Position numbers and translations under genes: made by a program. Shown in pieces: positions 22,609 through 55,297 of a stretch of DNA of 64,000 nucleotides. Numbering within the stretch: the stretch's first letter is position 1; every line of letters starts with the position of its first letter. The stretch is from Polyangiales bacterium (GTDB taxonomy: Bacteria > Myxococcota_A > Polyangia > Polyangiales > Ga0077539), in assembly GCA_044229975.1 (NCBI GenBank), contig JBGARZ010000005.1:384001-448000 (forward strand). The letters run 5' to 3'. The notes under the pieces were generated by a model. It made no database searches, had not been told where the DNA came from, and saw only the letters and a list, made by a program, of their open reading frames with translations.

Positions 22609-25434
22609 CTACCGCCCCGCCGCCCCGCCCGCGGGCTCGCCCGGATCGGACCCGTGCCCGTCGTCCAGCGCGAGCGCGTCGACCCGTCGCACCAGCAGCG
22701 CGTCGAGCCCCCGCGGCGCCAACGCGTCCGGTCGCCCCGAGACCCACCCGGTGAGCGCGTCGCGCACCAGCGGCGGCGCCGCGTCGTAGCGACGCACCAC
22801 CTCCTCTGGCGCCTCGACCACCCTCCCCATCGCCGCCAGCAGTTCGCCCGCTGCCGCCGCGTTGTCCGTCGGCGATCGGTCGTTCTGCAACGTCACCCGC
22901 GACCCGTCAGGACCGCGGTACTCCTGCACCGCGCGCACCTTGCTGCCGAAGCGCCCCTGCACCCGCACGCTCCGGTCGCCCTCGCGCACCGCCGTCACCG
23001 CGCGGCCCGACTCCCACGGCGCGACCCGCACCGCCGCCACCACCCGCCGCCCCGGCGCCTCCGCCGTGCCCGCGAGCCGCAGCCGATGCATGCCCGCCTC
23101 GCCGCGCAATAGCCCGAACGCGTACGCCCCTCTCACACCCAGCAGCCACGACTCCTCGTCGTCGCGCGGGTCTCGCCACCACGTCGCGGTGTACCCGCGG
23201 TGCTTCGCCCACTCGACGTACAGCGCCGCCAGCCGGTCGCGCATCTCCGGTCCGCTCGCGCCCACGACGCGGCACTCCACCAGCGCGTCGGCCCGACCGA
23301 GGTCGCCCATCACCACCAGCTCGCGCCGCGCGTCACGCAGCGCCTCCTCCAGCGCCCGCACCTCCTGCGCCGCGCCCTCCAGCGCCCGCCGCGAGGCCCC
23401 CTTCTCCAGCGCATCCCGCGCGCCCGCCACGCGCTCCTCCAGCGCCTCGACCCGATCGATGAGCTCCGACTCGCGCTCCAGGGCCTGCTCGTTGGCCGCC
23501 GCCCGCGCCGCGTCGCGCCAGAACCCCGGAGCCTCGCGCTCGCCCAGCAGGGCGTTCTGCCGATCGACGGCGGCCGTGAGGTGCACCGTCTCGCGCAGGC
23601 CATCGAAGCTCGCCTCGGCCTGTTGGAGCATCACCCGCAGCACCTCGCGGTCGATGACCCGCGGGTCCGTTCGCCGCGATGGAACCTCGCTCGCCCGGTA
23701 CGTCCGCGACGTCTCGGTCTCGACGACGCGCACCCGGATGGCGCCGTCGCGCGGCGTGATGCGGAGGATCGACCCCGGCGCCACGGCCTCTTCCATCAGG
23801 GTCATGGCGAGCGGCAACACCAGCCGCTTCTGGATCTCCCGCTTGAGCGCCCGCGCCCCATAGCGGGCGTCGACCCCCTGCCGGATGACGAGGTCGAGCG
23901 CGGCGTCGTCGACGTCGACGGTGAGCCCCGGCGCCACGATGCCTTCGCGTTGGAGCACCCGCGCGAGCTCGAAGCGCGCGACGGTGCGCAGCTCGACCAG
24001 CGAGAGCGCGTGGAAGATGGTGACGTGCTGAAAGCGGTTGAGAAACTCGGGGCGAAACGACGCTTCGAGCGCCGCACGGATCTTCCCTTCGCGGTCATCG
24101 CCCGCGCGCTCGCCGAAGCCGACGGCGCGCGAGGTCTCCTGGGCGCCGACGTTGGAGGTGGCGATGACGATGGTGTTGCGGAAGTCCACCGCGTCGCCGT
24201 CGGGCGTGCTCATGCGCCCTTCATCGAGCAGCGGCAGGATGAGGTCCCAGAGGTTGGGGTGGGCCTTCTCCAGCTCGTCGAGCAGCACCACCTGGAAGGG
24301 CTGCGCGCGCACCGGATCGAGCAGCCGCGCGGGCGCATCGCGACGCCGCGGAGAGCCGAGCAGCAGCTCGAACGCGTGGTAGTCCTTGAACTCCGACAGG
24401 TCGAAGCGGAGCAGGCGGTCGGCGCTGCCGAAGACGAAGGTGGCGAGCAGCCGCGCGAGCTCGGTCTTGCCGACGCCGGTGGGGCCGACGAAGAGGAAGG
24501 TCCCGATGGGACGCCCGGTGTCGTGGAGGCCCGACTTGTAGAGGGCGATGGCCTCGACCATGGCGTCGATGGCCGCGCGCTGGCCCACGAGGCGCTCCTG
24601 AAACCACGCGCGCACCGAGCCCGCGGTCATCGTCACGGCGCGCGACACGATGAACGACGGCAGACCCGTCCGCCGCGCAAACGCCGTCTCCACGGCGGCG
24701 GGCGTGAGCTCTTCGTCGGCGAGGTCGGGCTGCTCGATGATCCATTGCAGGAGCCCGAGCGCGGGGCCCGGCTGGAGCTGCGCCCGCAGGAAACGCGACG
24801 TGAGCTGCACCATGGCGCGACGCACGCTCTCGTCGACGGCGCGGCCCGCTCCCTCGGCGACACGCTGGAGCACGGCGTCGACCTGCGCGGCGTCGAGCGG
24901 CGCCACGTCGAAGCGCTGGAGGAGGCGCGTGAAGCCGGGGATGCGGTCCATGGTGCGGAGGCGCTCGACGTTGAGCTCGACGACGACGTTGAGCTCGCCC
25001 GCTTCGAGCATGGGGCGCAGCGCGTCGAGCACGTTGTCCGTGGAGGTGTCCGAGGCGCCCGCGGTGTTGAGGTTCCAGGCGTCGGTGAAGAAGAGGATCT
25101 CGTTGCGCTCACGCGACTGCTTCACCCACGCGCGCAGCTTGGACTGCCAGTCGCCGAGGTAGTGGGTGCCGCTGAGGAGGTCCATGGTGGACACCCGCAC
25201 GAGGCCGCCTTCGCCGCGTTCGAGGCGGGCGCTGTGCACGCCCTGGAGCACGGCGGTCTTGCCCACGCCCGTCGGCCCGACCAGCATCACCGAGCGCCCC
25301 GCGGTGAGCTGCTCGTCGACGCGCGCGATCAGGTCGTCGCGGTACGGCACCCCGAGGCTCTGCCCCCCGAGCGCGAAGGGAGCGAGGGTGCGCCGCTCCT
25401 GGAGATACAGCCCGTAGTAATCCTTCTCGGCCAC
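22609..25434 (-). CDS. ClpA/B-like double AAA+ ATPase fused to an inactive RF2-like module
   Basis: Two GPTGVGKT motifs, FDLSEF, LLDELEKAHP, FRPEFLNR and YGARAL. C-terminus APGFWRD...GAYAFGLLRGEAGMHRL...QNDRS...VRRY...VRDALTG. GTG start supported by an extended -10 box. Confidence 0.85.
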   Translation of the reverse strand: MAEKDYYGLYLQERRTLAPFALGGQSLGVPYRDDLIARVDEQLTAGRSVMLVGPTGVGKTAVLQGVHSARLERGEGGLVRVSTMDLLSGTHYLGDWQSKLRAWVKQSRERNEILFFTDAWNLNTAGASDTSTDNVLDALRPMLEAGELNVVVELNVERLRTMDRIPGFTRLLQRFDVAPLDAAQVDAVLQRVAEGAGRAVDESVRRAMVQLTSRFLRAQLQPGPALGLLQWIIEQPDLADEELTPAAVETAFARRTGLPSFIVSRAVTMTAGSVRAWFQERLVGQRAAIDAMVEAIALYKSGLHDTGRPIGTFLFVGPTGVGKTELARLLATFVFGSADRLLRFDLSEFKDYHAFELLLGSPRRRDAPARLLDPVRAQPFQVVLLDELEKAHPNLWDLILPLLDEGRMSTPDGDAVDFRNTIVIATSNVGAQETSRAVGFGERAGDDREGKIRAALEASFRPEFLNRFQHVTIFHALSLVELRTVARFELARVLQREGIVAPGLTVDVDDAALDLVIRQGVDARYGARALKREIQKRLVLPLAMTLMEEAVAPGSILRITPRDGAIRVRVVETETSRTYRASEVPSRRTDPRVIDREVLRVMLQQAEASFDGLRETVHLTAAVDRQNALLGEREAPGFWRDAARAAANEQALERESELIDRVEALEERVAGARDALEKGASRRALEGAAQEVRALEEALRDARRELVVMGDLGRADALVECRVVGASGPEMRDRLAALYVEWAKHRGYTATWWRDPRDDEESWLLGVRGAYAFGLLRGEAGMHRLRLAGTAEAPGRRVVAAVRVAPWESGRAVTAVREGDRSVRVQGRFGSKVRAVQEYRGPDGSRVTLQNDRSPTDNAAAAGELLAAMGRVVEAPEEVVRRYDAAPPLVRDALTGWVSGRPDALAPRGLDALLVRRVDALALDDGHGSDPGEPAGGAAGR

Positions 25435-25440
25435 GACGCG

Positions 25441-37059: not shown

Positions 37060-37067
37060 CCGCCTCC

Positions 37068-38021
37068 TCACACAGGAACCTCCACCTGCTTCATGATGGC
37101 GGCGATGAGGCGTTCGGGGGAGGTTCCGCCGTAGCGCGACTGTGGGGTGAGCATCACGCGGTGGGCGAGCACCGGGGCGGCGAGGGCCTGCACGTCGTCG
37201 GGCGTGACGTGGTCGCGGCCCGAGAGGAGCGCGCGCGCCTGGCAGGCGCGGAAGTAGGAGAGAGCGCCGCGCGGCGAAGCGCCGAGGGCGAGGTCGGCGT
37301 GGTCGCGGGTGGCAGTGACCACGCGCAGGAGGTAGCGGGCGACGGGCTCGCGGACGAGCACCTCACGGACGGCGCCCTGGAGGGCCGAGAGGGTGGCTCC
37401 ATCCGCAACGGGCTGGAGGTCATCGAGGGGGTCGCGGCGCTGCCGGGCGTAGAGCAAGGCGAGCTCGTGGTCGGCGGAGGGGTAGCCGACGGAGAGGCGC
37501 AGCATGAAGCGATCGAGCTGGGCGTCGGGCAGGGGAAAGGTGCCCTGTGACTCGATGGGGTTCTGCGTGGCGAGCACGAAGAAGGGCTGCGGGAGCGCGT
37601 GGGTGGTGCCGTCGATGGTGGCGCTGCCCTCGTTCATGGCTTCGAGGAGGGCGCTCTGGGTGCGGGGCGAGGCGCGGTTGATCTCGTCCGCGAGGAGAAC
37701 GTTGGTGAAGACGGGGCCGCGGTGGAAGCGGAAGGTTCCGTCGCGGGGGTCGAGCACCTGGGCGCCGAGGATGTCGCTCGGGAGGAGGTCGGGCGTGAAC
37801 TGCACCCGGGTGCAGGTGACGTTGAAGCAGCGGGCGAGGGCGCGCGCGAGGGTGGTCTTGCCGACGCCGGGGACGTCCTCGATGAGCACATGGCCACCAG
37901 AGAGGACACCGACGAGCAGCAGCTCGATGGCCTCGGGGCGGCCCGAGAGCACGGAGGCGAGGCGCTCACGGATGACGGCGACGGTCGCGCGGAGGGCCGG
38001 GAGTTCGGGGGAAGCGCTCAT
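37068..38021 (-). CDS. moxR: MoxR family AAA+ ATPase
   Basis: EDVPGVGKT, RVQFTPDLLPSD and LADEINRASPRTQSALLEAM. Confidence 0.95.
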   Translation of the reverse strand: MSASPELPALRATVAVIRERLASVLSGRPEAIELLLVGVLSGGHVLIEDVPGVGKTTLARALARCFNVTCTRVQFTPDLLPSDILGAQVLDPRDGTFRFHRGPVFTNVLLADEINRASPRTQSALLEAMNEGSATIDGTTHALPQPFFVLATQNPIESQGTFPLPDAQLDRFMLRLSVGYPSADHELALLYARQRRDPLDDLQPVADGATLSALQGAVREVLVREPVARYLLRVVTATRDHADLALGASPRGALSYFRACQARALLSGRDHVTPDDVQALAAPVLAHRVMLTPQSRYGGTSPERLIAAIMKQVEVPV

Positions 38022-38096
38022 GAAGGAGGGCCGGAGGGTAACATCGGGCGCCGCGGGGTGAACGACGGAGAGGGTGGTGGGTATTTCCGAAGAGGC

Positions 38097-38138
38097 GGGG
38101 ACGGTTTCAGCTTTTCGTGAAAAGCTGAAACCGTCCCC
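38097..38138. repeat. Perfect palindrome, second copy of the REP-like element
   Basis: GGGGACGGTTTCAGCTTTTC-gt-GAAAAGCTGAAACCGTCCCC; arms match those at 3413-3432 / 3516-3535. Confidence 0.92.
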
Positions 38139-39719
38139 ATGCACCTCGCCCTCGCCCAGTTGAACCCGCGCGTCGGCGACCTCTCCCGCAACGCCGACCT
38201 CGTCGTCGAGGCCCTGCGCGCCGCCCACGCCCAGGGCGCCGACGTCGCGCTCACCCCCGAGCTCGTGCTCACCGGCGCTCCCCCGCGCGACCTGCTCTGC
38301 GACCCCCGCTTCGTCGACGACACCCTCGCGGCACTTGGTACGGTCGCCCAACGATCGCCCCCCGCGCTCACCGCCTACGTCGGCGCCATCGCCCGCGCCC
38401 CCTCCCCGACGCCGGGGCATCCCGGGCTCTACAACGTGCTCGCCGTCCTCCATGGCGGGCGCGTCGTCGACGTCGTCCGCAAGCGCCTGCTCCCCGCCTA
38501 CGACGTCTTCCATGAGCCACGGTGGTTCGTCCCCGGCACCTCTCCCGCCACCGTGCGCGACGGTCTCGGCCCGCTCATCTGCGAAGACCTCTGGGACGAC
38601 GGCTACCCCATCCACCCCGGCGCCGAGCTCGTCGCCGCCGGTGCGCGAGTGCTCGCCTGCGGGGCCGCCTCTCCCTTTCGTTGGGATGCGTACCAACGGC
38701 GCGTCGCCCACGCCGCGCGGCAGAGCGTCGCGGTGGCCTACGCCAACCTCGTCGGCGGACAGGACGAGCTCATCTTCGACGGCGGCAGCTTCGTCACCGA
38801 CGCCACCGGGCACGTGGTGCACCGGCTCCCCTTCTTCGAGGAGGCCGTCGAGACCTTCGACCTCGGCGACGCCACCCACGACGCGCCCGCGCTCCCCTCG
38901 CGCGAGGCCCTCGGCTTCGACGCGCTCGTCCTCGGCCTGCGCGACTTCGCCCGCAAGAACGGCGTTCGCCGCGTGGTGCTCGGCCTGTCGGGCGGCATCG
39001 ACTCGGCGCTCGTGGCCTGCATCGCGAAGGAGGCGCTCGGCGGCGACCGCGTTCTCTGCGTGGCGATGCCCACGCGGTACAACGACCCGCGCTCGACGAC
39101 CTGTGCTCAGGAGCTGGGCGCGGCGCTCGGGGTGCGAGTGGAGGTGTTTCCCGTCGAGGCGATGACCGAAGCGATGTCGGGCGCGCTGGGCGGGTGGCTC
39201 GACGGACTCGGCCCGGCGCGGCCGGGCGACACCACGCACGAAAACCTTCAGGCGCGGGTGCGAGCGCAGGTGTTGCTCGCGGCGATCAACCGCACGGGGG
39301 GGATGCTGCTCAACACCAGCAACAAGACGGAGCTGTCACTCGGCTACGGAACGCTCCACGGCGACCTCGCGGGCACGCTCTCGGTCATCGGCGACCTGAC
39401 CAAGCCCGAGGTGTACGCGCTGGCCCGCTGGTACGACGCGGGCCGCGGGGTGATCCCGGCGTTTGTGATGGAGCGAGCGCCGAGCGCGGAGCTGCGCGAC
39501 GGGCAGGTGGACCCCTTCGACTACCCGGTGGTGGCGCCGCGAGTGGAGTCGCTGGTGAAGGGGATTCCGTTGGAGGGGTGGGATGAGGCCGATCGTACGG
39601 TCACCGAACGATCGGTGCGAACGGCCGAGAGCAAGCGATGGCAGGGGGGCGTGGTGCTGAAGGTCAGCGACCGGGCCTTCGGGTCGGGGCGGATGATGCC
39701 GGTGACCCGAAGTCGGTAG
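38139..39719 (+). CDS. nadE: Glutamine-dependent NAD+ synthetase
   Basis: Nitrilase domain (PEL, KRLLP, ICEDLW) plus GLSGGIDS, ENLQARVR, TSNKTE and PSAEL. Confidence 0.95.
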   Translation: MHLALAQLNPRVGDLSRNADLVVEALRAAHAQGADVALTPELVLTGAPPRDLLCDPRFVDDTLAALGTVAQRSPPALTAYVGAIARAPSPTPGHPGLYNVLAVLHGGRVVDVVRKRLLPAYDVFHEPRWFVPGTSPATVRDGLGPLICEDLWDDGYPIHPGAELVAAGARVLACGAASPFRWDAYQRRVAHAARQSVAVAYANLVGGQDELIFDGGSFVTDATGHVVHRLPFFEEAVETFDLGDATHDAPALPSREALGFDALVLGLRDFARKNGVRRVVLGLSGGIDSALVACIAKEALGGDRVLCVAMPTRYNDPRSTTCAQELGAALGVRVEVFPVEAMTEAMSGALGGWLDGLGPARPGDTTHENLQARVRAQVLLAAINRTGGMLLNTSNKTELSLGYGTLHGDLAGTLSVIGDLTKPEVYALARWYDAGRGVIPAFVMERAPSAELRDGQVDPFDYPVVAPRVESLVKGIPLEGWDEADRTVTERSVRTAESKRWQGGVVLKVSDRAFGSGRMMPVTRSR

Positions 39720-42849: not shown

Positions 42850-43893
42850 CTACCGCCGCCGGTCGATGCGCAGCGTCTCCGGGCTCTCGACCGCCCCATC
42901 GGGCATCGCCCACGCGTCGCCCGTCTCCGGCATCCGCGGCTCGCTCTCCCCGTCCAGCGTCTCGGCCAGTCCCACTCGCAGCCCCACCAGGGCCGCGATG
43001 AAGTCCTCCGCCCGCTGGTAGCGCTCCTCCGGGTACCGCGCCATCGCCCGCGCCACGCACGCCACCAGCGCCGCGGGCAGCGTCGGAACCCTCCCCTCCA
43101 ACGCAATGGGCGCCGCGCTGCACGCCTTCATCATGATCTCGCCGGTGTGCGCCCCCTCGAAGGGGAGCGCCCCGCTCAGCATCTCGTAGAGCATCACCCC
43201 GACCCCATAGAGATCAGCCCGGTGGTCGACGCCCGCCGGGTTGAAGATCTGCTCCGGGGCCATGTAGTGGGGCGTCCCCAGCGTCGTGCCCGCCGGGGTC
43301 AATGGCGAGGTGCGCTGCTCGAAGAGCATCTTGCTCGTCCCGAAATCCAGCACTGTCGCCGACTCGCCCCCGTCATCCGTCCGCCGCAGGAAGACGTTCC
43401 CGGGCTTCATGTCGCGATGCACCACGCCGTGCGCGTGGGCCACGCGCAGGCCCTCCAGCACCTGCAACGTCAGCCGCACCGCCCGCGCCGGGGACAGCCG
43501 CTTCTCGCCCAGCAGCGTGATGTGCAGCCCCCTCCCCTGGAGCAGCTCCATCACCAGGTACGCCGTGCCGTCCGCCGCGATGGCGCAGTCGTGCGTCTCG
43601 ATCACGTGCGGTGACCGCAGCGCTCGCGCCGCCCTCGCCTCGCGAACGAACCTCTCCAGCGAGTCATCCCGGTCGGCGATGTCCGGCTTCAGCAGCTTGA
43701 TGGCCACCCGATCGCCCAGCAGCTTGTGCCGCGCCCGATAGACGCTCCCCATGCCGCCGCCGCCGAGAAACCACTCGACCTCGTAGCGGTCGATGGTGGT
43801 GCCGCACGGGCCCACGGTGGTCGGCGTCCCGGTCTTCGGGCACCGCGCAAAATCCTCTGGGTGGTCGTCGCCACACGCCCTGCAATACGCCAT
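42850..43893 (-). CDS. Hanks-type Ser/Thr protein kinase with N-terminal Zn-ribbon-like motif
   Basis: CRAC...CPKTG; LGGGGMGSVY, VAIK, HRDMKPGN, DFG and YMAPE. Confidence 0.93.
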   Translation of the reverse strand: MAYCRACGDDHPEDFARCPKTGTPTTVGPCGTTIDRYEVEWFLGGGGMGSVYRARHKLLGDRVAIKLLKPDIADRDDSLERFVREARAARALRSPHVIETHDCAIAADGTAYLVMELLQGRGLHITLLGEKRLSPARAVRLTLQVLEGLRVAHAHGVVHRDMKPGNVFLRRTDDGGESATVLDFGTSKMLFEQRTSPLTPAGTTLGTPHYMAPEQIFNPAGVDHRADLYGVGVMLYEMLSGALPFEGAHTGEIMMKACSAAPIALEGRVPTLPAALVACVARAMARYPEERYQRAEDFIAALVGLRVGLAETLDGESEPRMPETGDAWAMPDGAVESPETLRIDRRR

Positions 43894-43934: not shown

Positions 43935-46900
43935 ATGACGACACCCTCCATTCCCCTCCGCGTCCAGCTCCTGCGTCTGCGCCTCACCAGCGGGCGCACG
44001 CTGCTGCTCCCCATCGCCGATCCGCGCCACGCCGTGGTCGCCGAGGAGTCCGACGCCCTCCTCGAAGCACAGCTCTTCCTCTCCGAGTGGCTCGCCACCC
44101 AAGCGCCCTCCGTCGTCGGCGGCTTCATCGCCAACCCCAACGCCCGCGTCGAGTACGTGCCCGTCCCCCTCACCCGCGAAGACCTCCCGCGGCGATTCCG
44201 TGAGCCCGTCATCGTCTGCGTCCCCTGCGTGGTTCTGCCCGAAAACAACCGCTCGTGGGTGTTCGTCGCGCCGCTGGAGACCGTCGTCTACGTCGGCCCC
44301 AACGCCTCGCTCGCCGAGACCGTCGGCGCGGAGGTCAGCCGCCTCGTCGACGCCTGGGAACTCCCCCCCGACCGCCGCCTCGACCTCTTCCCCCTCCCCG
44401 GCGCCGAGCTCGTCGCCACCGACCTCGTCGTCGAGCGCCGCCACGGCCGCGGCCCCGACGGCGAAGCCTCGCGCCCCCGCGAGCGCGCCCGCTCCGAAGA
44501 GAAGGCCGCCGCCCTCGAAGCCCTGCGATCCATCGGCAACGCCCTCGACGAGCGCGAGGCGACCACCCTCGCCCACCGCGACGACGCGCTCCGAACGCTC
44601 TCCGCCCTCCTCGACGGCACTCAACGGCAGTCGGTGTTGCTCACGGGCGCGTCGCTCGTGGGTCGCTCGGCGCTGCTGCGCGCCTGGGTCGCCCGGCGCA
44701 AGGCCGACGGTCGCCCGGCGACGGCGTTCGTGACGAGCGGCGCGCAGCTCCTCGCGGGCATGAGCGGCCTCGGTCAGTGGGAAGCCCGCTTGAAGAAGGT
44801 GCTCGACGCCGCCGAGCTGCTCGACGCGGTGCTGGTCTTCGACAACCTGGGCGAGCTGCTCACCGATCGACCGTCGGGCGGGGTCAACCTCGCCGCCGCG
44901 CTACGACCCGCGCTCGAAGAGGGCCGCGTGCGGTTGGTGGGCGAGCTCCGCGACGACCTCGTCGACGCTGGCGAGCGCCACCACGGCAGCTTCCTCGGCA
45001 ACTTCACCCGGCTGCGCGTGGAGCCGCTCACCGCGGCGCAGACCCTCGACGCCCTCCAACAGCGGGCGGCGCAGGAGGCGAAGGCGCAGCGCGACGGTCC
45101 GGCCCTCACGCGTGATGGCGCCGAGACGGTGGTGGACCTCGCGGCGCGCTACATGGCCTACGACGCCTTTCCGGGGAAGGCGTTTCGCCTGCTCGACGAG
45201 CTGCGCGCGGTGGTCGAGAGCGACCGCGACCTCACCACCGCCCACACCCCGGCGATGGACCGCGACCTCGTACAGCGGGCGTTCAGTCGGCAGAGCGGGA
45301 TACCGGCGTTCATCTTGAGGGACGACCTCGCGATGCGGGTGGAGGAGGTCACCGCGTCGCTACAGAAGCGCATCGTGGGACAGACCGCAGCGGTGCGCGC
45401 GATGGCGCAGACCCTCGGTGTGGTGAAGGCCGGGATGCAGCGGGGCGGACGACCGCTCGCGTGTCTGCTCTTCGTCGGTCCGACGGGCGTCGGCAAGACC
45501 GAGCTCGCCCGCGCGACGGCGCACCTGCTGTACGGCAGCGACGAGCGGATGATCCGCTTCGACATGAGCGAGTACACCGACCTCGAAGCGGCCGATCGTC
45601 TCATCCGCGGGGTGCGCGGCGCGGAGGGCCTGCTCACGCGGCGCATCCGCGAGCAGCCCTTCGGCGTGCTGCTGCTCGACGAGGTGGAGAAGGCCCACCC
45701 GGCGGTGTTCGACCTGCTGTTGCAGGTGCTCGGCGAGGGCCGCCTCACCGACGGCCAGGGGCGAACGGCCTACTTCCACAACGCCATCGTGGTGATGACG
45801 AGCAACCTCGGCGCGACGGGCATGCGCGACCCGGTTGGCATCGGGCAGGCGCCCGCGGACATGGGCGCCCACTACCTGCGCGCGGTGGAGTCGACGTTTC
45901 GACCCGAGTTCATCAACCGGCTCGATCGGGTGATTCCCTTCGACGCGCTGGGTGCGGCGGAGGTGCGCGCGGTGGCGACCATGACGCTCACGAAGCTGGC
46001 GCAGCGACGCGGTCTCGACGGCGTGACGCTGACCGTGAGCGACGCGGCCGTCGACCACCTGAGCGCGCGCGGATACTCCAACCGCTACGGCGCGCGGGCG
46101 ATGCGTCGGCACCTCGAAGACCACCTCGTGGCACCCGTCGCGGGCCTCGCCAACGACGCGGTGAACCCCGGCGAGACGCTGCTCGCCGTGCGGGTGTCGC
46201 TGCCGTCGGAGCCGGCGGAGGCACGCGCCGAGGGCTACCGGGACGAGGTCGTGGTGGGCGGCCTGCGGGTGGAGGTGTGGGCGGCGGCGCCACGTGAGGG
46301 CCACGAAGCAGCAGCGCTACGAACGGAGCTGGCGACGCACCGACGCTGGGTCGACGCGGCGCTCAAGCTGCCGCGCATCGACGGCATCCGCAGCCAGGTG
46401 GAGCACCTGCGGGCGCAGCTCTCGTACCGGGCGGCGGGGACAACGACCGGGACGGGTGAGCGCAACGCGTTGCAGCGCGAACACCACCAGTTGGACACGC
46501 ACTGGACGGCGCTCACGCGCTTGCAGCACGAGCTGTGGTCGCTGGAGGAGCTCGGCCTGGAGGGGCACCTCGGTCGCGACGAGGCGAAGGAGCTGCGCGC
46601 CGAAGCGGAGGCGGTGCGCGAGCGCTTCGAGGTGGCGCTGGCCGAGGCGATGCTGTCGTCGGTGGTGGGGCGCAACGGCGTAGTGCTCATGGTCTCGGAG
46701 CTCGACGACACCCGCGGGCTGGAGCCGTGGCTGGAGGGCTACGACGTGGCGTGCGAGGCGCGACGGTGGACCCTCGACGCGCACCTCATCGACATGGCCC
46801 CCGAGCGGGGCGACGAGTGGCCGGCGGAGCGACGGTGGGGGCCGCCGCGCAAGCTGCGGACGGTGCTCGACCTGCTACGCGCGGAGGAGGATCGCGGACC

Positions 46901-47309
46901 GAAGAGCGTGGTGCTGGAGGTGGAGGGTGTGCATTCGGGGGTGCTGCTGGCGCTGGAGCGCGGGCTGCACGTGCGGCGCGAGGGGGACCATCGGTCGGTG
47001 GTCGAGGTGCGGCTCCTCACGCGGGGCCTCGGGCTCGACGACAAGGAGTGGGCGCACGCGGCGCTGGTTCCGCCGATGCCGACGGACTTCGAGGCGCTGG
47101 GCAAGCGGCCCGCGGCGCGCACGACGTGGGTCGACCTGTATGTGCAGACGCCAGGGATGCGGAAGGTGGAGCTGCGCAAGGGCCAGCACGCGCACGAGGT
47201 CATCGAGCGCGTGGCGTGTCAGCACCTGTTGGAGTTGGAGTTCGACCCCGACGCGCAGCCCCTGGAGGAGCTCATGGAAGGCCCGCTCGACGAGGGGAAC
47301 GAGGGGTGA
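43935..47309 (+). CDS. ClpA/B-like AAA+ ATPase (degenerate NBD1) with PCRF/RF-like C-terminus; trio subunit 1
   Basis: NBD1 GASLVGRS / VFDNL; NBD2 GPTGVGKT, FDMSEY, LLDEVEKAHP and FRPEFINR; C-terminal PKSVVLEVEG..GVLLALERGLH. Confidence 0.85.
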   Translation: MTTPSIPLRVQLLRLRLTSGRTLLLPIADPRHAVVAEESDALLEAQLFLSEWLATQAPSVVGGFIANPNARVEYVPVPLTREDLPRRFREPVIVCVPCVVLPENNRSWVFVAPLETVVYVGPNASLAETVGAEVSRLVDAWELPPDRRLDLFPLPGAELVATDLVVERRHGRGPDGEASRPRERARSEEKAAALEALRSIGNALDEREATTLAHRDDALRTLSALLDGTQRQSVLLTGASLVGRSALLRAWVARRKADGRPATAFVTSGAQLLAGMSGLGQWEARLKKVLDAAELLDAVLVFDNLGELLTDRPSGGVNLAAALRPALEEGRVRLVGELRDDLVDAGERHHGSFLGNFTRLRVEPLTAAQTLDALQQRAAQEAKAQRDGPALTRDGAETVVDLAARYMAYDAFPGKAFRLLDELRAVVESDRDLTTAHTPAMDRDLVQRAFSRQSGIPAFILRDDLAMRVEEVTASLQKRIVGQTAAVRAMAQTLGVVKAGMQRGGRPLACLLFVGPTGVGKTELARATAHLLYGSDERMIRFDMSEYTDLEAADRLIRGVRGAEGLLTRRIREQPFGVLLLDEVEKAHPAVFDLLLQVLGEGRLTDGQGRTAYFHNAIVVMTSNLGATGMRDPVGIGQAPADMGAHYLRAVESTFRPEFINRLDRVIPFDALGAAEVRAVATMTLTKLAQRRGLDGVTLTVSDAAVDHLSARGYSNRYGARAMRRHLEDHLVAPVAGLANDAVNPGETLLAVRVSLPSEPAEARAEGYRDEVVVGGLRVEVWAAAPREGHEAAALRTELATHRRWVDAALKLPRIDGIRSQVEHLRAQLSYRAAGTTTGTGERNALQREHHQLDTHWTALTRLQHELWSLEELGLEGHLGRDEAKELRAEAEAVRERFEVALAEAMLSSVVGRNGVVLMVSELDDTRGLEPWLEGYDVACEARRWTLDAHLIDMAPERGDEWPAERRWGPPRKLRTVLDLLRAEEDRGPKSVVLEVEGVHSGVLLALERGLHVRREGDHRSVVEVRLLTRGLGLDDKEWAHAALVPPMPTDFEALGKRPAARTTWVDLYVQTPGMRKVELRKGQHAHEVIERVACQHLLELEFDPDAQPLEELMEGPLDEGNEG

Positions 47310-47451
47310 CGTAGCCCGCTAGCAGACCGGGGTTGGTCGCGTCCCGCGCCTGCACCCCGGCACGCGAGCGGGTCCCGCGAGATGTGGCCCGCGACCGGGC
47401 GCGACGTCGTTCCCCCATTCCGACCCTGGATGACGTTATGGTCCGCGCTCC

Positions 47452-50400
47452 ATGGAGGTACGGCTCACCGTCTATCATGTGCGCGAGGGGCAGCGGGTGC
47501 TGTGGGCCCCGCTCGGCCTCGGCGCGCTCTTCCACCGCTTCGAGGGCGCCCACGAGAACAAGCTCCGCGACCAGCTCTCCGTGCACTACCGCGAGGTGCT
47601 GCGCGAGCTCCCCACGGCCGACGTCGCGCGCTTCGAGCTCTCCCGCGGGGCGCGGCTCACCTCCGTACGCGTCGACCTCACGCTCCAGTCCGAGGGCAAG
47701 CGCCACAAGCGCTCGATGACCGTCCCGCTCGTGCTGCTCTCGCGGTGGGTCGGACCGACGCCGCGCGTGACCGTGGCCTTCCACCCGCTGCGCCAAGGCG
47801 ACTGGTTCGCCTTCCGGCCCGAGCACGGAACGCTCGCCGAACACGCCGCGGGGTGCTTCAGCGAGCTGTGGGCGGGCCTCGATCAGGAGACCCTCGACGG
47901 CCTGCGCCACCGACCGCGGTCGGGGTTGCGGGTGGTCTCCTTCAACGCCGCCACGCGCTCCATCCTCGACACGCTCAAGCCCGAGAGCGCCGACCCGCGC
48001 GGCGAGCGGCCGCCCTCGGAGGCCGAGCTCTCGCAGCGACGAACCGGCTACCGCGTGCTCCCGCGCATCGGCGACAACCTCACCCGCCGCGCCATCGACG
48101 GCGACCTCCCCGTGCCCGAGCACGCCTCGCCCGTGCGCGAACGCCTCCGCGCCCAGGTGAGCGCGTCGCCCCCGCGCAGCGTCGTGCTCATCGGGCCGTC
48201 GGGCTCCGGGCGCACCACCGCGCTGCGCGGCCTCGTGCACGACCTGCTGACGGCCGACGACTTCGGCGCCCATCAAAACGCCGACAAGGTGCGCGCCGTC
48301 TGGCAGGTGAGCGGCACGCGCATCATCGCGGGGATGTCCTTCCTCGGCGACTGGGAGGAGCGCTGCGGCGACGTGCTGACGGACGTTCGCACGCGGCGCG
48401 CGGTGCTCGCCGTGGGCGACCTGCACCAGTGGGGACGCGTCGGCCGGTCGAGGGACAGCGACCGCAACCTGGCGGAGTTCTTCCGGGCGCCGGTGTCGCG
48501 CGGGGAGTGCGTGCTGCTGGGCGAGTGCACGGTCGAGCAGTGGCGGCAGTTGGAGGAGGACGCGCCGGCCTTCGCGGCGGCGTTTACCCGCGTGGCGATG
48601 CCCGAGACGTCGGCCGCGGAGACGATGCGGATGCTGCTCCACGAGTCGCGCTCGCTGGAGCTCACCTACGGCATGCGCATCCCCGCCGAGGGCCTGCGCA
48701 CGCTGCTGGAGGTGGGCGGTCCGCTGTTTCCGCACCGGGCGTTGCCGGGGAGGGTGTTCGACCTCCTGCACGCGGCGCTGCGCGACTGCAACGGGGCCTC
48801 CATGGCGAGCGAGGACGACCTTCCGCTGCAACGCGCCGAGGCGCTCTCGCGGGCGGGCGCGCCGACCTTCAGCGAAGACAGCGCCCTCGACTGGATCTCC
48901 ACGCGCACCGGCTTTCCGCTCGGTCTCCTGCGCACGGACATCCCGCTGTCTGCCAACGACGTGCGCGCGGCGATGACAGACCGGGTGCTGGGACAGCCCG
49001 CCGGGGTCGAGGCCGTGGTCGACCTCGCGATGCGTATTCGCCAGGGGCTGAGCGACCCGAAGCGACCGCTGGCCGTGTACCTGTTCACGGGACCGACGGG
49101 CACCGGCAAGACCGAGCTCGCGCGGGCCATGGCGGCGTTTCTGTACAGCTCCCCGGAGAGGCTGTTGCGCCTCGACATGGGCGAGTACGCGACGGCCGAC
49201 GCGGCGGCGCGGCTCATCGGCGATCGGTGGTCCCCGGAGGGTCTGCTCACCCGACACGCGGCGCAGCAGCCCTTCGGCGTGGTGCTCTTCGACGAGATCG
49301 AGAAGGCCCATCCGCAGGTGCACAACCTGCTGCTCCAGCTCTTCGACGAGGGACGCCTCACCGACGCGGGTGGGGTCACGGCCAACTTCACCCACGCGGT
49401 CATCGTGATGACCTCCAACCTGGGCGCGCGGCGCGAGTCCGTGGTGGGCGTCGGCGTCGATCCGGTGGCGTCGTCGCACGACCACCTGCGCGCGGTGCAG
49501 GAGTTCTTTCCGCCGGAGCTGTTCAACCGCATCGACCGGGTGGTGGCCTTCTCGGCGCTCACGCCGGAGGTCGCGCGGGTGGTCGCGTCGCGGGAGCTCA
49601 CCCGGCTCGCCGCCCGCCCCGGACTGGTCGATCGCGGGGTGTTCGTGTCGTGGACCGACGCGCTGCTCGATCGTGTGGTGAGCGAGGCCTTTCGCGCGGA
49701 GGACGGCGCCCGCTCGCTCAAGCGCTACCTCGAAGACCGCGTCGGATCGGCGCTCACCGACCACCTCGTGCGAGAACCGCGGGCCGACCTGACGCTCCTG
49801 CGCGTGGACGTGGGTGACGCGCCGGGCAGCTTCACGATGAACGCGCGAGCGCTGCGCGAGGCCGAGCCGTTGGCGGCGCGGTATCCGTTGGAGGAGCTCG
49901 CGGAGGCCGACCGCGCGACGCTGGCGACGAGGGTGCGCCGGGCGTTGGTGGTGCTGGAGTCGGCGATGGGCTCGACGGACTTCGAGGAGCTGTCGCGGAA
50001 GATCCACGAGCGGGTGGAGGCGCACCGGGCGGGCGACCGCGCGGCGAGCGACTCCGCGTTTCACCTGGACGCGTTGCGCGCGCACGGCGACGCGCTGCAC
50101 GAGCGGCTCACGACGCTGGCGCGAAGGGTGTCCGAGGCGACGGACTGGGAGCTCGCGGAGGTCGACGCGGAGGGACGGCTCACCTACGGGGTGGACCAGC
50201 TCCCGGTGCGGGCCGAGCTGCTGGCGGCGATCGCGGAGGTGGCGGCGCTCACGCGAGCATTGCGAGAGGTGGACGACCCGACGCAGCACGCGGTGATGAT
50301 CACGCTGAGCCCGCTGGAGGGCGTCGGCAGCAGCATGGTGGGGCTCATCAACGCGCTGGCGTACGTGTACAGCCGGGCGCGCGGAAGGGTCGAAGCGAGC

Positions 50401-50775
50401 GGGGCGGACTCGGTGCGCGGGCAGCGGATCGCGCTGAAGGTGGTGGGGCTGTCGGTGCGGTCGTTCTTCGAGCACGAGGAGGGGGTGCACCTGTGGCACA
50501 CGCCCGACGGGCCGCCGATGATCGCGGTGGTGCGGGTGCGTCCGGCGCTGGCGGGCGAGACCCCGGAAGACGCGCTCGCGACGCTGGACCGCGACTTCGA
50601 TCCGGCGCTGCGGGTGGTGCGATCGATCCGCTACGACCCGACGCGGCGACCGGGCCCGCTGACGCTGGAGGACTACGTGATGGGCACCACCCGCGCGGTG
50701 AGCGCATCGCGCGTGACGGACCCGCTGCCCGCCCTCTGGATGGCCCGCATGGCGCGCGAGGAGGAGGCGTCGTGA
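47452..50775 (+). CDS. ClpA/B-like AAA+ ATPase (degenerate NBD1) with PCRF/RF-like C-terminus; trio subunit 2
   Basis: NBD1 GPSGSGRT / AVGDLH; NBD2 GPTGTGKT, LFDEIEKAHP and FPPELFNR; C-terminal IALKVVG...FEHEEGVHLW...VVRSIRY. Confidence 0.85.
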   Translation: MEVRLTVYHVREGQRVLWAPLGLGALFHRFEGAHENKLRDQLSVHYREVLRELPTADVARFELSRGARLTSVRVDLTLQSEGKRHKRSMTVPLVLLSRWVGPTPRVTVAFHPLRQGDWFAFRPEHGTLAEHAAGCFSELWAGLDQETLDGLRHRPRSGLRVVSFNAATRSILDTLKPESADPRGERPPSEAELSQRRTGYRVLPRIGDNLTRRAIDGDLPVPEHASPVRERLRAQVSASPPRSVVLIGPSGSGRTTALRGLVHDLLTADDFGAHQNADKVRAVWQVSGTRIIAGMSFLGDWEERCGDVLTDVRTRRAVLAVGDLHQWGRVGRSRDSDRNLAEFFRAPVSRGECVLLGECTVEQWRQLEEDAPAFAAAFTRVAMPETSAAETMRMLLHESRSLELTYGMRIPAEGLRTLLEVGGPLFPHRALPGRVFDLLHAALRDCNGASMASEDDLPLQRAEALSRAGAPTFSEDSALDWISTRTGFPLGLLRTDIPLSANDVRAAMTDRVLGQPAGVEAVVDLAMRIRQGLSDPKRPLAVYLFTGPTGTGKTELARAMAAFLYSSPERLLRLDMGEYATADAAARLIGDRWSPEGLLTRHAAQQPFGVVLFDEIEKAHPQVHNLLLQLFDEGRLTDAGGVTANFTHAVIVMTSNLGARRESVVGVGVDPVASSHDHLRAVQEFFPPELFNRIDRVVAFSALTPEVARVVASRELTRLAARPGLVDRGVFVSWTDALLDRVVSEAFRAEDGARSLKRYLEDRVGSALTDHLVREPRADLTLLRVDVGDAPGSFTMNARALREAEPLAARYPLEELAEADRATLATRVRRALVVLESAMGSTDFEELSRKIHERVEAHRAGDRAASDSAFHLDALRAHGDALHERLTTLARRVSEATDWELAEVDAEGRLTYGVDQLPVRAELLAAIAEVAALTRALREVDDPTQHAVMITLSPLEGVGSSMVGLINALAYVYSRARGRVEASGADSVRGQRIALKVVGLSVRSFFEHEEGVHLWHTPDGPPMIAVVRVRPALAGETPEDALATLDRDFDPALRVVRSIRYDPTRRPGPLTLEDYVMGTTRAVSASRVTDPLPALWMARMAREEEAS

Positions 50776-53045
50776 GCGCGAAGCCGGGCTGCCGGGTGTA
50801 CTTCGTCCCGCACGAGGGCGGGCTCGTGAGCGGGACCCTCATCGGGATGCTCGGGCCCTTCGAGGAGCCGCCGAGCGCCATCGGGCGCAGCGGCGACGAG
50901 GTGCTCAAGCAGTTGGAGGTGCTGCTCCAGCGGGCCATCGCGCACAACCCGGGGGTGCTCGACCGGTACCTGTGGGACGTCCCGTTTGCGACGCGCGAGG
51001 TGACCGTCGACGTGCACCCGCAGGTCGCCAAGGAGAAGCGCATCGTCATCGGGGCGGGCGAGATTCCACTGCGGCTCACCTACGCCTGGAGCGCCCTCAA
51101 GCGCGGCGGGTATCGCGTGATGCTGCCGCGCTTCGGGTGGTCGTTCGTGGTGGAGCGGCTGGAGATCGCCCCGGAGGTGTTGCGCCACGCGGTGAGCACG
51201 GTGCTACTCGGGCAGAGCCCCGGCGCGCTGATGACCTTTCAGCGCCACGGTGACGAGTGGGTGAGCGAGTGGACCCCGAGGGTCATCGACCCCGACCTCG
51301 ACGAGGAGTCTGGAGCAGCGCTCGCGAGGGAGTTTCCGACGGTGACCGCCGTGGCCGACGAGTGGGTCGAGCGGGTGGCGCGCCGACGGTTGACGATGCC
51401 CGTGGGCGACGACCCCACGCTGGCCCAGCTCGCCGCGATCACGTCACGACAGCCGATGCCCTCGGTGCTGCTGGTGGGTCCGACGGGCGTGGGCAAGACC
51501 ACGCTGGTGCGTCGGCTCGCGCGGCACCTCCTCATCGAGCGGCGGGCGCACCCCGACCGGCACGTCGCGCGGCTCTGGTCGACCTCGGCCACGCGGCTCA
51601 TCGCAGGCATGACCTACGTGGGCATGTGGCAGGAGCGCTGCCTCTCCCTCGTCAAGGAACTCTCCCACGAAGGCGACCTCCTCTTCGTCGACCGGCTCGT
51701 GCCGCTGCTCCAACCGCAGCCCGACGGCGGGTCCATCGGCGAGGTGCTGCTACCCGCCGCGCGCGAGGGTCTCATCTCCGTCGTAGCGGAGTGCACCCGC
51801 GCCGAGCTGGAGGCGTGTCGTCGTCGCTTCGGCGGAGCGCTGGAGGTCTTCCAGGTGGTGCACGTCGAGGAGCCCGAGGCCGCGGCGATGCTGCGCTTCG
51901 TCCCGGTGTACGCGCAGCGCAAGCTGCCCACCTACGCGCTCCCGCCCTCGTCGGTGCGGAGGCTCACCACGCACCTCGCCGCGCTCCAACGCGACGCGGC
52001 GTTTCCGGGCAAGGCGGTGCGCTTCCTCGACTGGATCGCCGCCGCCCACGACCCGACGGACACCTCCGCGCACACGCTGTCGCCGCGGGACGTGTCGTCG
52101 CGCTTCGCGAAGTTCTCGGGCATCCCCGAGGAGCTCATCGCCGACGAGCACGCCGTCACACCCGAAGGGCTCGCTGCAACACTGCAACGCTCCGTCATCG
52201 GACAGGACCCGGCGTGTCAGTCGGCCGCCCGCGTGCTCGCTCGCTTGAAGGCGGGGCTCAACGACCCCGAGCGACCAGTGGGGACGCTGCTCTTCCTGGG
52301 GCCGACGGGTGTGGGCAAGACCGAGCTCGCGCGGGCGATGGCGACGTACCTCTTCGGCGACCCGGCGCGGATGATCCGTCTCGACATGAGCGAGTACATG
52401 TTCGCGGGGTCGGGGCAGCGCATGCTGGCGGTGGGACAGGGCTCGCAGAGCCTCGCGACGAAGGTGCGCGAGCGACCATTGTCGTTGGTGCTCTTCGACG
52501 AGATCGAGAAGGCCCACCCGGAGGTCTTCGACCTGTTGTTGGGCATGCTCGGCGAGGGACGCCTCACGGACTCCTTCGGGACGAGCGTCGACTGCCGGAT
52601 GACGGTGGTGGTGATGACGTCCAACCTCGGGGTGAGCGAGTCGCGCGCGGTGGGCTTCGGCGATGCGGGCGGCGGCGACAGCGCGATGCGCGCGGCGCGG
52701 CGACACTTCCGACCGGAGTTCTTCAACCGGCTCGACCAGGTGATCGGGTTCAACACGCTGACGCCGGGGGACGTGCTTCGCATCGTCGACCTGGAGCTGA
52801 CTCGCGCCGAGGGTCGCGCGGGCCTCCAGCGGCGGCGCGTGAAGCTGTCGGTCGATGCGGCGGCGCGCGAAGAGCTCGCGCGGCTGGGCTGGCATCCGAC
52901 GCGGGGCGCGCGACCGTTGCAGCGGGTGATCGAGGAGCGGGTGATCGCCCCGGTGGCGGCCCACCTCGCGGCCAATCCGGGGTTGCACGACACGGTGCTC
53001 CAGGTGGACGCCCGCGGCGTGGTGACGGGACGAGGTGACGCGTGA
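50772..53045 (+). CDS. ClpA/B-like AAA+ ATPase without RF module; trio subunit 3
   Basis: GTGA overlap with the upstream gene; GPTGVGKT twice, LDMSEY, LFDEIEKAHP, AVGFG and RGARPLQR. Confidence 0.88.
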   Translation: MSAKPGCRVYFVPHEGGLVSGTLIGMLGPFEEPPSAIGRSGDEVLKQLEVLLQRAIAHNPGVLDRYLWDVPFATREVTVDVHPQVAKEKRIVIGAGEIPLRLTYAWSALKRGGYRVMLPRFGWSFVVERLEIAPEVLRHAVSTVLLGQSPGALMTFQRHGDEWVSEWTPRVIDPDLDEESGAALAREFPTVTAVADEWVERVARRRLTMPVGDDPTLAQLAAITSRQPMPSVLLVGPTGVGKTTLVRRLARHLLIERRAHPDRHVARLWSTSATRLIAGMTYVGMWQERCLSLVKELSHEGDLLFVDRLVPLLQPQPDGGSIGEVLLPAAREGLISVVAECTRAELEACRRRFGGALEVFQVVHVEEPEAAAMLRFVPVYAQRKLPTYALPPSSVRRLTTHLAALQRDAAFPGKAVRFLDWIAAAHDPTDTSAHTLSPRDVSSRFAKFSGIPEELIADEHAVTPEGLAATLQRSVIGQDPACQSAARVLARLKAGLNDPERPVGTLLFLGPTGVGKTELARAMATYLFGDPARMIRLDMSEYMFAGSGQRMLAVGQGSQSLATKVRERPLSLVLFDEIEKAHPEVFDLLLGMLGEGRLTDSFGTSVDCRMTVVVMTSNLGVSESRAVGFGDAGGGDSAMRAARRHFRPEFFNRLDQVIGFNTLTPGDVLRIVDLELTRAEGRAGLQRRRVKLSVDAAAREELARLGWHPTRGARPLQRVIEERVIAPVAAHLAANPGLHDTVLQVDARGVVTGRGDA

Positions 53046-55297
53046 AGCGGTGGGTAGCGGCGCTGCTGGTGTTTCTCACGGGCGGCGCGGCGCTCATCTA
53101 CGAGCTGGCGTGGACGCGCTGGCTCACGCTGACGCTGGGCGCGAGCGCGCGGAGCCTCGCGGTGGTGACCGCGAGCACGATGCTGGGCTTCGGCGTGGGC
53201 GCGGGGTTGCTCGGCGCGCGCATCGACCGGACGTCGCGTCCGCTGCGGATGTACGGGCTGCTGGAGATTGCCATCGGCGTGAGCGCGGCGATGGTGACGG
53301 CGGTGCTGCGGGCGGCCCCGATGGCGCACTGGAGCGCCGACCTGCCGCACTGGGCCGTCGCGCTGGTGGTGCTGGTGCTGGTGGGGATTCCGACGGCGTT
53401 CATGGGGGTGACCATCCCGGCGCTGGTGGCGCACCTCGGGCGCGGTGACGCCGCCACCACCCGCGGCGCCTTCGGAACGCTCTACGCCGCCAACACCGCC
53501 GGCGCCGTACTGGGAACGCTCGCCGCCGGCTTCGTTCTCATCGAGGCGCTCGGCTACACGGGTGCCTCGGCCATCGGCATCGGGCTCAACCTGCTGGTGG
53601 GCGCCGTCGCGGTCGCGAGCGATCGCGGGGATGCACCCGCCGCGACGACCGAAGCGCCCGTCGAAGAGGAGTCACCCGCGGCGGCCTACGACCCGAAGGT
53701 GGCGCGGGCGGCGTTGATGGCGGCGACCGTGTCGGGCTTCGGCGTGATGGCCCACGAGGTCATCTCGTCGCGGCTGCTGGTCTACGGGTTCTTCGCGACG
53801 ACGCACGCCATCGCCATCATCCTGGCGGTGTTTCTCGGCGGCCTCTCGCTGGGCGCGCGCATCATCGCGGGGCCGATGCGCCGCGGCACCGTCGGCGTGG
53901 TGCACCTGGGCGGAGCGCTGCTGGCATCGGGTGCGTTGTCGCTCGCGCTGGCGCCGTCGCTCACGCAGACCGCCGCGCTGGTCGACGCCCTCCGCGGGAC
54001 GCGCCCCGAGTGGTCGGTGCGGCTGGGCATCGAGGCGCTGGTGGCGTCGGCCGTGCTGCTGCCCGCTGCGGTGGTGATGGGGCTGGTGTTTCCGCTGGCG
54101 GCGGGCCTCTACGCGAGCGCGAAGAGCCCGGGCGCGACGCTGGGGCGCGCGGTGCTGAGCAACACCATGGCGGGCGTGGTCGGGGCGCTGGGCGCGGGCT
54201 TCGTGCTGGTTCCGTTGTTTGGCGTGCGCGGCTCCATCGTGGCGGTGGCGCTGGTGCAGGCCGCGTCGGGCGCGTGGATCGTCGCCACCCACGCGACGGT
54301 GAAGCGGGTCGCGGCGATGGGTGTCGGCGTGGCGATCGCGGTCGCGGTGGGCGGCGCGCTGTGGGCGCAGAAGCCACGCACGGGCGGCGTCCCGGGCGAG
54401 ACGACGCTGGTGGCGCAGCACGTCGTGGGTCACGAAGAGGACTACCGGGTGCGCTGCTACCGGGAGGGACCGACGGCCATCACGGAGGTGCTGGAGCACA
54501 TGCCATCGGGGCGGCGCGACGTGGTCATCGACGGCTTCGTGGCAGCGGGCAACGACGGCAGCGCTGGGTACATGGACCTGATGGGACGCGTCCCGATGAC
54601 GCTGCACCCGGCTCCGCGAAGGGCGCTGGTGATCTGCTTCGGGACGGGCGCGACGTCGCGGGCGGTGGCGTCGTTCCCGGAGGCATCGGTCGACATCGTG
54701 GACATCAACCCCGACGTGTTCGCGTGCGCGCCGTCGTTTCCGGCCAACGTCGCGCTGCTGCGGCGGGCGCACACGCACGTCGAGGACGGTCGGGCCTTCC
54801 TGCGGCGCTCGTCGGGCGCCCGCTACGACGTCATCACGCAGGAGCCGATGCCGCCGCACTTCGCGGGCGTCGCGGCGCTCTATTCGGAGGAGTACTACCG
54901 CCTCGCGCGGGCCCGCCTCGCCGACGACGGGGTGATGGTGCAGTGGCTGCCGATGCACCTGACGGCGCCCGACGACGCGCGCCAGATCGCAGCGGCAGCG
55001 CTCAGGGTGTTTCCCGAGACGTGGCTGGCCATCGCGCCGGGGGATTTCACCGGGCTGCTGGTGTCGTCGCCGCGGCCGATCCCAGCCGCGCGGCGGGCCG
55101 TGGTGGAGGCCGAGCTCAGGACGGCCTTCGCGCTCGACCCGGCGCACCTGCGGCGCTTCATCGACGGCGCGGGGCCCACGACGGACGACCGGCCGTCGCT
55201 CGAATACAACGGCGTCGACCGCGTGCTCGATCGGTTCAGGAGCCCGGCGCGGATGCTCCGGTACAACCTCCGTCGGGTGGTGGCGGCGGGGCGGTAG
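53042..55297 (+). CDS. Fused MFS-like membrane domain / spermidine synthase-like protein
   Basis: GGAALIYELAWTR, LYAANTAGA, about 12 TM helices; ICFGTGAT, VDINP, EDGRAFL and YDVITQEP. GTGA overlap with Clp subunit 3. Confidence 0.88.
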   Translation: MKRWVAALLVFLTGGAALIYELAWTRWLTLTLGASARSLAVVTASTMLGFGVGAGLLGARIDRTSRPLRMYGLLEIAIGVSAAMVTAVLRAAPMAHWSADLPHWAVALVVLVLVGIPTAFMGVTIPALVAHLGRGDAATTRGAFGTLYAANTAGAVLGTLAAGFVLIEALGYTGASAIGIGLNLLVGAVAVASDRGDAPAATTEAPVEEESPAAAYDPKVARAALMAATVSGFGVMAHEVISSRLLVYGFFATTHAIAIILAVFLGGLSLGARIIAGPMRRGTVGVVHLGGALLASGALSLALAPSLTQTAALVDALRGTRPEWSVRLGIEALVASAVLLPAAVVMGLVFPLAAGLYASAKSPGATLGRAVLSNTMAGVVGALGAGFVLVPLFGVRGSIVAVALVQAASGAWIVATHATVKRVAAMGVGVAIAVAVGGALWAQKPRTGGVPGETTLVAQHVVGHEEDYRVRCYREGPTAITEVLEHMPSGRRDVVIDGFVAAGNDGSAGYMDLMGRVPMTLHPAPRRALVICFGTGATSRAVASFPEASVDIVDINPDVFACAPSFPANVALLRRAHTHVEDGRAFLRRSSGARYDVITQEPMPPHFAGVAALYSEEYYRLARARLADDGVMVQWLPMHLTAPDDARQIAAAALRVFPETWLAIAPGDFTGLLVSSPRPIPAARRAVVEAELRTAFALDPAHLRRFIDGAGPTTDDRPSLEYNGVDRVLDRFRSPARMLRYNLRRVVAAGR

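Follow-up and report, generated by a model that had tools for sequence, protein, structure and literature searches.

The window analysed here is a 64,000-nucleotide stretch of the genome of a Polyangiales bacterium (contig JBGARZ010000005.1, positions 384,001 to 448,000 of the forward strand), which carries three consecutive genes, hereafter the trio, encoding divergent Clp-like ATPases. Gene 1 (43935..47309, +; 1124 amino acids) encodes a HicB-like N-domain (residues 1-205), a degenerate first nucleotide-binding domain (NBD1), an intact second one (NBD2) and a C-terminal tail derived from release factor 2 (RF2). Gene 2 (47452..50775, +; 1107 amino acids) follows after 142 bp and has the same layout with a more diverged tail, and gene 3 (50772..53045, +; 757 amino acids) has the N-domain and both rings but no tail. 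The GTG start of gene 3 at 50772 overlaps the stop of gene 2 as GTGA. The open reading frames thus bear out a sequence-only reading of the window, which had described three same-strand paralogues of these lengths, an overlap between the second and the third, and a third protein that ends after its second ring. Each protein contains a two-ring Clp core (two AAA+ modules with a D2-small domain; Pfam AAA, AAA_2 and ClpB_D2-small), and core identity is 33-39% among the trio and a fourth gene of the window, the 22609 gene. The cores align along their full length to those of ClpA and ClpB, as befits class I Clp/Hsp100 ATPases; their scores of 257-307 bits are far below the curated ClpA/ClpB cut-offs of 993-1232. 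No Clp_N match was found in the trio proteins, and the modelled N-domain is alpha/beta, not a helical repeat. Nor was the coiled-coil middle domain of ClpB found, the two Walker A motifs being 274-299 residues apart within one continuous ClpA match. By membership criteria applied to their sequences, the trio proteins belong to the Clp/Hsp100 superfamily, yet fall outside ClpA, ClpB, ClpC and RF2. The source genome has its own ClpA- and ClpB-like proteins, an intact RF2 and two ClpP genes elsewhere, and the trio is therefore additional to the housekeeping set.

A pattern scan of a genome collection with the first ring of gene 2 confirmed 354 relatives, and loci were counted around the best 80 of these, nearly all titled myxobacteria or deltaproteobacteria. 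Gene order was scored within 8 kb, and several of the 80 loci end at contig ends. The order 1>2>3 was found in 43 loci (one with gene 1 split), 1>2 in 22, 2>3 in 10 and gene 2 alone in 5, with no other order among the 80, and no position was duplicated in any of them, one split gene aside. In all four tested genomes whose locus had no gene 3, this gene was found elsewhere at 55-61% identity. Presence is all-or-none within one family of 41 genomes: three strong matches were found in 11, none in 19 and a single weak, unclassified match (33-35% identity) in 11, and no genome had just one or two strong matches. In the genus of Myxococcus xanthus, three members are present in 30/32 genomes, with only gene 1 pieces in one and none in the other. 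Tight junctions, in which an in-frame start lies at most 30 bases ahead of the upstream stop or 20 past it, join genes 1 and 2 in 43/58 cases and genes 2 and 3 in 51/52.

A tree of 90 cores, from which one duplicate locus, one broken locus, frames below 200 bits and members with a second Walker A off pattern were omitted, contains one clade per position in each of two trio types, together with the 22609 type and the canonical Clps; the window trio is of type I. A quick tree of 30 rows that includes the N-domain recovers six position-by-type clades with 98-100% support in the Shimodaira-Hasegawa-like approximate likelihood ratio test, and joins position 2 of types I and II at 98%; positions 1 and 3 are not joined across types. 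Both types co-occur in some genomes (e.g. G011 and G225). Since the three paralogues diverged long ago and each genome has one of every kind, the pattern is that expected of the subunits of a single complex, as far as sequences can indicate it; kin are not independent, and for this reason no statistical test is given. A conserved trio of non-interchangeable paralogues, as the earlier reading had it, is upheld by gene order, all-or-none presence and the one clade per position. In a span of some 11 kb, one type II trio lies between two canonical-type Clp genes (L247:14155-16848 and L248:1217-3952), the downstream one of which clusters with the ClpC MXAN_4832. Another Clp-like protein (G000:C27:78781-81168), whose first ring is degenerate and whose GYVG loop is intact, groups with the canonical Clps and not with the trio family.

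Motifs were counted in 189 type I proteins (58 of gene 1, 79 of gene 2 and 52 of gene 3), and type II was judged by eye. The NBD2 Walker A lysine, Walker B glutamate, arginine finger and sensor 2 are present in 189/189, and the GYVG pore loop of NBD2 in 0/189. After NBD2 sensor 1 there is a loop of the IGF/IGL type, with a variable first residue, the glycine in 188/189 and then phenylalanine in 159/189. In NBD1, the Walker A lysine is kept in 56 gene 1, 59 gene 2 and 51 gene 3 proteins (it is arginine in window genes 1 and 2), its arginine finger is mostly lost, and its Walker B glutamate is found in 0/58, 0/79 and at most 1/52 proteins of genes 1, 2 and 3, the type II rows being likewise without it. 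Gene 3 of the window retains the NBD1 Walker A lysine and a pore-loop tyrosine, has lost the Walker B glutamate, and has an intact NBD2. Just before the sensor-1 position of NBD1, one strand over from Walker B, a glutamate is conserved in 58/58, 70/79 and 52/52 proteins (180/189); the NBD1 regions that hold it lie at 44556-45245, 48103-48792 and 51387-52076. This residue is possibly a relocated catalytic glutamate, which could compensate for the lost one. At the residue scored in pore loop 1, 57/58 gene 1 proteins have glycine and 52/52 of gene 3 an aromatic, a motif change that is specific to the subunit. We infer that the second ring is active, that the first is scaffold-like, and that grip is unequal among the subunits.

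The N-domains of genes 1, 2 and 3 are homologous to one another (98%) and have no Pfam family. The N-domain of gene 3 (50772..51374, +) gave a model with a predicted local distance difference test (pLDDT) score of 86.5; a single-sequence model of the whole of gene 1 reached a pLDDT of 38 and was unusable. The best structural matches of the gene-3 domain are HicB antitoxins (Z 5.1-6.3), followed by folds of the type that binds double-stranded RNA. The top five rows are all HicB or HicB-like (Z 5.5-6.3, root-mean-square deviation of about 3, 67-80 residues aligned), and none reaches Z 8. HicB-type proteins are also the best sequence matches, at E 0.2-0.6, whereas Foldseek with the model returned nothing at E 0.001 and a search of a structure atlas gave no usable match. 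The model is thus suggestive of a HicB-like domain, short of HicB membership.

The tail of gene 1 (residues 756-1124; 46200..47306, +) comprises domain 1 and domains 2/4 of RF2, and is without the GGQ domain and the SPF motif. That of gene 2 (residues 787-1107; 49810..50772, +) is homologous to the tails of gene 1 and of the 22609 type and has a weak direct match to release factors. Searched alone against Pfam, the window tails gave no match; of 61 tails, 11 had a PCRF match with E no higher than 0.05, and these comprised ten from gene 1 and one from the 22609 type. In the PDB, a profile of 25 gene-1 tails retrieved RF2 chains at E 7e-11, with RF1 reaching no better than 0.14; it aligns to RF2 at 97.9%, nearer to it than to RF1; the 57 type I gene-1 tails alone matched PDB RF2 at E 1e-4. 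Gene-2 tail profiles found no release factor in the PDB; most of their pairings with gene-1 and 22609-type tails give matches of 95-97%, and one gives 80%. From these profiles, the gene-1 tail is judged to be RF2-derived, and the gene-2 tail to be a more diverged copy, tied to RF2 only via the other tails. The sequence-only reading had proposed release-factor-like tails lacking GGQ in both proteins; neither window tail has GGQ or SPF, and the resemblance holds directly for gene 1 and only through the other tails for gene 2. Counted as strings at any position, GGQ occurs in 2/57 and 1/57 homologous tails, and SPF in 0/57 gene-1 and 3/57 gene-2 tails. At E up to 1e-10 the gene-1 tail profile retrieved 372 representatives, among which there may be plain RF2 proteins, and many of its best 150 matches are of about 1100-1200 amino acids; clusters of similar appearance in Planctomycetota, Bacteroidota and Acidobacteriota offer a lead only. 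Two further short PCRF matches (G000:C4:11310-11438 and G000:C34:314770-314898) lie in 197-residue frames of the source genome. One gene-1 homologue (L029:3299-4513) ends with an extra domain like the C-terminal domain of ribosomal L7/L12 (E 6e-05, below the cut-off), an isolated instance that would be in keeping with a ribosome link.

The 22609 gene (22609..25437, -) shares the two-ring signature, has no N-domain, and ends in a tail with RF2-like domains 1-4 in which the GGQ loop is cut down. Its product is probably about 942 residues long, with a start near 25437, and not 1071, because close relatives have 939-944. Orthologues were found in 8 other genomes of 121 searched, where they were the only family match among the three candidates scored per genome, a number that makes the trio's absence there a floor; one same-genus genome has the orthologue and no trio match. 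Conversely, most of the trio genomes checked are without it (e.g. G012, G043, G053, G076 and G136). The idea that this gene completes a four-gene Clp-pseudo-release-factor system is rejected on the evidence of both sets of genomes, and by its distribution and sequence it is a solo relative of the same family, not a fourth part of the trio. The type may represent the ancestral single-gene form.

When the flanking frames at 113 loci were clustered, no partner was conserved apart from sigma-54 activators and kinases; the largest cluster consists of antisense shadow frames, followed by these two. Neither a defence island nor a conserved partner gene was found at these loci, and co-location with defence islands is not supported. 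PADLOC 2.0 gave only partial matches over the generic AAA domain and no system-specific partner genes. A phage origin is rejected for want of any family member among the best 80 viral matches, which look like ordinary Clps, mostly 23-29% identical. In the window, a Ser/Thr kinase gene (42850-43893, -) diverges from gene 1 with 41 bases between the start codons; kinases, which these genomes have in abundance, also adjoin some of the other trio loci. On the other side, a gene for a membrane protein with a fused spermidine-synthase domain (53042-55297, +) overlaps the stop of gene 3 by GTGA and is not a conserved neighbour. The window also has a row of MoxR-type AAA ATPase, DUF58 and transglutaminase genes (33869-39239, -).

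A type II trio locus, with proteins of 1149, 1127 and 836 amino acids, links the family to the model organism M. xanthus. Of the proteins encoded at this locus, the second is identical to ABF88121.1 and the third to ABF88791.1, and the first falls in a cluster with ABF91057.1; these accessions are MXAN_4824, MXAN_4825 and MXAN_4823, respectively (PMC11423568). Sequence identity and clustering thus indicate that MXAN_4823-4825 are a type II trio, of the sister type to that of the window. They resemble the window trio in family, gene order and size pattern, and differ in type; annotated as ClpA/B family, they figure in the papers found only as table entries and as genes noted for induction by chloramphenicol. 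These genes have been called one chloramphenicol-induced operon, and the main-text log2 fold changes for MXAN_4823/4824/4825 are 3.57, 2.67 and 2.61 at 8 h of chloramphenicol, among 1920 changed genes, and 1.47, 2.17 and 1.92 in chloramphenicol-adapted cells, among 481 (PMC6617876). This induction fits a role in translation stress, and is non-specific. It lends one independent hint to the earlier suggestion of translation quality control.

We propose that the three paralogues likely assemble into a mixed ring, a reasonable deduction from their sequences and distribution. Somewhat more tentatively, at a little under an even chance, this ring would dock on stalled ribosomes via catalytically dead RF2-derived tails, remodel the stuck substrate and likely hand it to ClpP. 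The hexamer would hold two copies of each subunit. Its second ring would act as the motor that drives extraction or remodelling, its first as a nucleotide-bound scaffold, and grip would come from the aromatic pore residue that subunits 2 and 3 have in the first ring. The tails might enter the factor-binding and decoding site as RF2 does, with no stop-codon reading and no peptide release, while the HicB-like N-domains may bind substrate or RNA and the ClpP-type loops may recruit ClpP as partner. Domain 1 of RF2 is the outer part of the ribosome-bound factor, and the ATPase is attached on that side. In its boldest form, a heteromeric Hsp100 machine that plugs its dead release-factor mimics into the A site of ribosomes that have stalled and uses ATP and ClpP to clear them, the proposal is possible, though less likely than not.

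Several observations weigh against docking of a mixed ring on the ribosome. The missing GYVG loop makes ordinary threading doubtful, and by Clp architecture the tails and the ClpP loops would lie on the same ring face. Gene 1 is separate from genes 2-3 in four close relatives; GTGA overlaps are common here, the unrelated next gene overlapping gene 3 likewise, and because GC content is 72%, start/stop overlaps are weak evidence alone. The direct match of gene-2 tails to release factors is weak (3-27%), and no conserved translation gene stands beside the trio at the 113 loci. In one genome pair the tails are the least conserved region, with 61-66% identity and a ratio of nonsynonymous to synonymous substitution rates (dN/dS) of 0.42-0.59 against 0.13-0.26 for the rings, and tails and N-domains together (0.35-0.59 against one relative, values that high GC inflates) evolve under looser constraint than the rings do. 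Such fast evolution is unexpected for a surface that contacts conserved ribosomal RNA. The chloramphenicol data concern type II, whereas the window trio is of type I, the changed genes were many, and the authors of that study read the induction as general proteolysis (PMC6617876).

Some of the same observations suit other explanations. If the mixed ring were a specialised ClpP partner or remodeller in which the release-factor-derived tails serve as adaptor or assembly domains, independently of the ribosome, then the loss of the GGQ domain and SPF, the strong divergence of the tails, the conserved ClpP-type loop and the changing set of neighbours, in which kinases and sigma-54 activators are frequent, would all be accommodated. 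That the solo 22609 type keeps four recognisable RF2 domains, that the RF2 similarity of gene-1 tails lasts across both trio types, and that chloramphenicol induces the M. xanthus trio speak for a retained ribosomal connection, and we regard such a remodeller as unlikely, if the likeliest of the rivals. The fast-evolving tails and N-domains would also be expected of a mixed-ring conflict machine, with RF2 mimics and HicB-like domains that act as bait for translation-targeting toxins or phage proteins and pass these on to ClpP. The HicB-type best matches by both sequence and fold, the patchy all-or-none presence (11/41 in one family) and the two trio types, both found in some genomes (G011, G225), point the same way. 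The HicB Z-scores are middling, however, the trio is near-universal in one genus (30/32), no conserved defence neighbours were seen at 113 loci, PADLOC touched the generic AAA domain only, and the best 80 viral matches resemble ordinary Clps at mostly 23-29% identity, so that we hold this explanation to be distinctly unlikely. Three independent homohexamers, kept in one operon through shared regulation, would conform to the homohexameric state of known Clp/Hsp100 proteins; the solo 22609 type indicates that the architecture can stand alone, and the trio genes are scattered in some genomes. Nevertheless, one of each position is kept even when they are scattered, no position is duplicated in the 80 loci (one split gene aside), and motif losses are complementary by position, which renders separate homohexamers improbable.

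If the trio acts on ribosomes as proposed, it would constitute a rescue route apart from transfer-messenger RNA, ArfA/ArfB, PrfH and RqcH, widespread in Myxococcota and possibly present in other phyla; if it serves as bait, it would be a new kind of conflict system. Either reading is directly testable because M. xanthus carries MXAN_4823-4825. Release-factor paralogues have been turned before to rescuing stalled ribosomes, in PrfH-RtcB and ArfB, which keep the catalytic domain that the trio tails have lost; the main text of the release-factor survey concerned does not contain the string 'Clp' (PMC6514570). Full-text literature searches, which for the most part do not extend to subscription papers, returned no description of this architecture or of a heteromeric Clp ring. 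Compared with ClpA and ClpC, the trio has the same tandem NBDs, absence of a ClpB middle domain, intact NBD2 motifs and IGF-type loop after sensor 1, but a HicB-like N-domain replaces Clp_N, the NBD1 Walker B glutamate is gone, GYVG is deleted, and there are RF2-derived tails and three fixed paralogues. The tail resembles RF2 (PrfB; Pfam PCRF and RF-1) in domain 1, domains 2/4 and the FW-D and E-G-HR motifs, and differs in having neither GGQ domain nor SPF and in being fused behind an ATPase. Heteromeric AAA+ rings of non-interchangeable paralogues are known in Pex1/Pex6, Rvb1/Rvb2 and the Rpt ring of the proteasome, and in Pex1/Pex6, too, the first ring is inactive and the second active; these systems belong to other AAA+ clades, are eukaryotic and have no release-factor domain. 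Clp/Hsp100 ATPases are taught to be homohexamers from single genes, and release-factor folds to be catalysts on the ribosome; the trio joins the two in a fixed set of three paralogues, in which both the release factor and the first ring have lost their catalytic parts.

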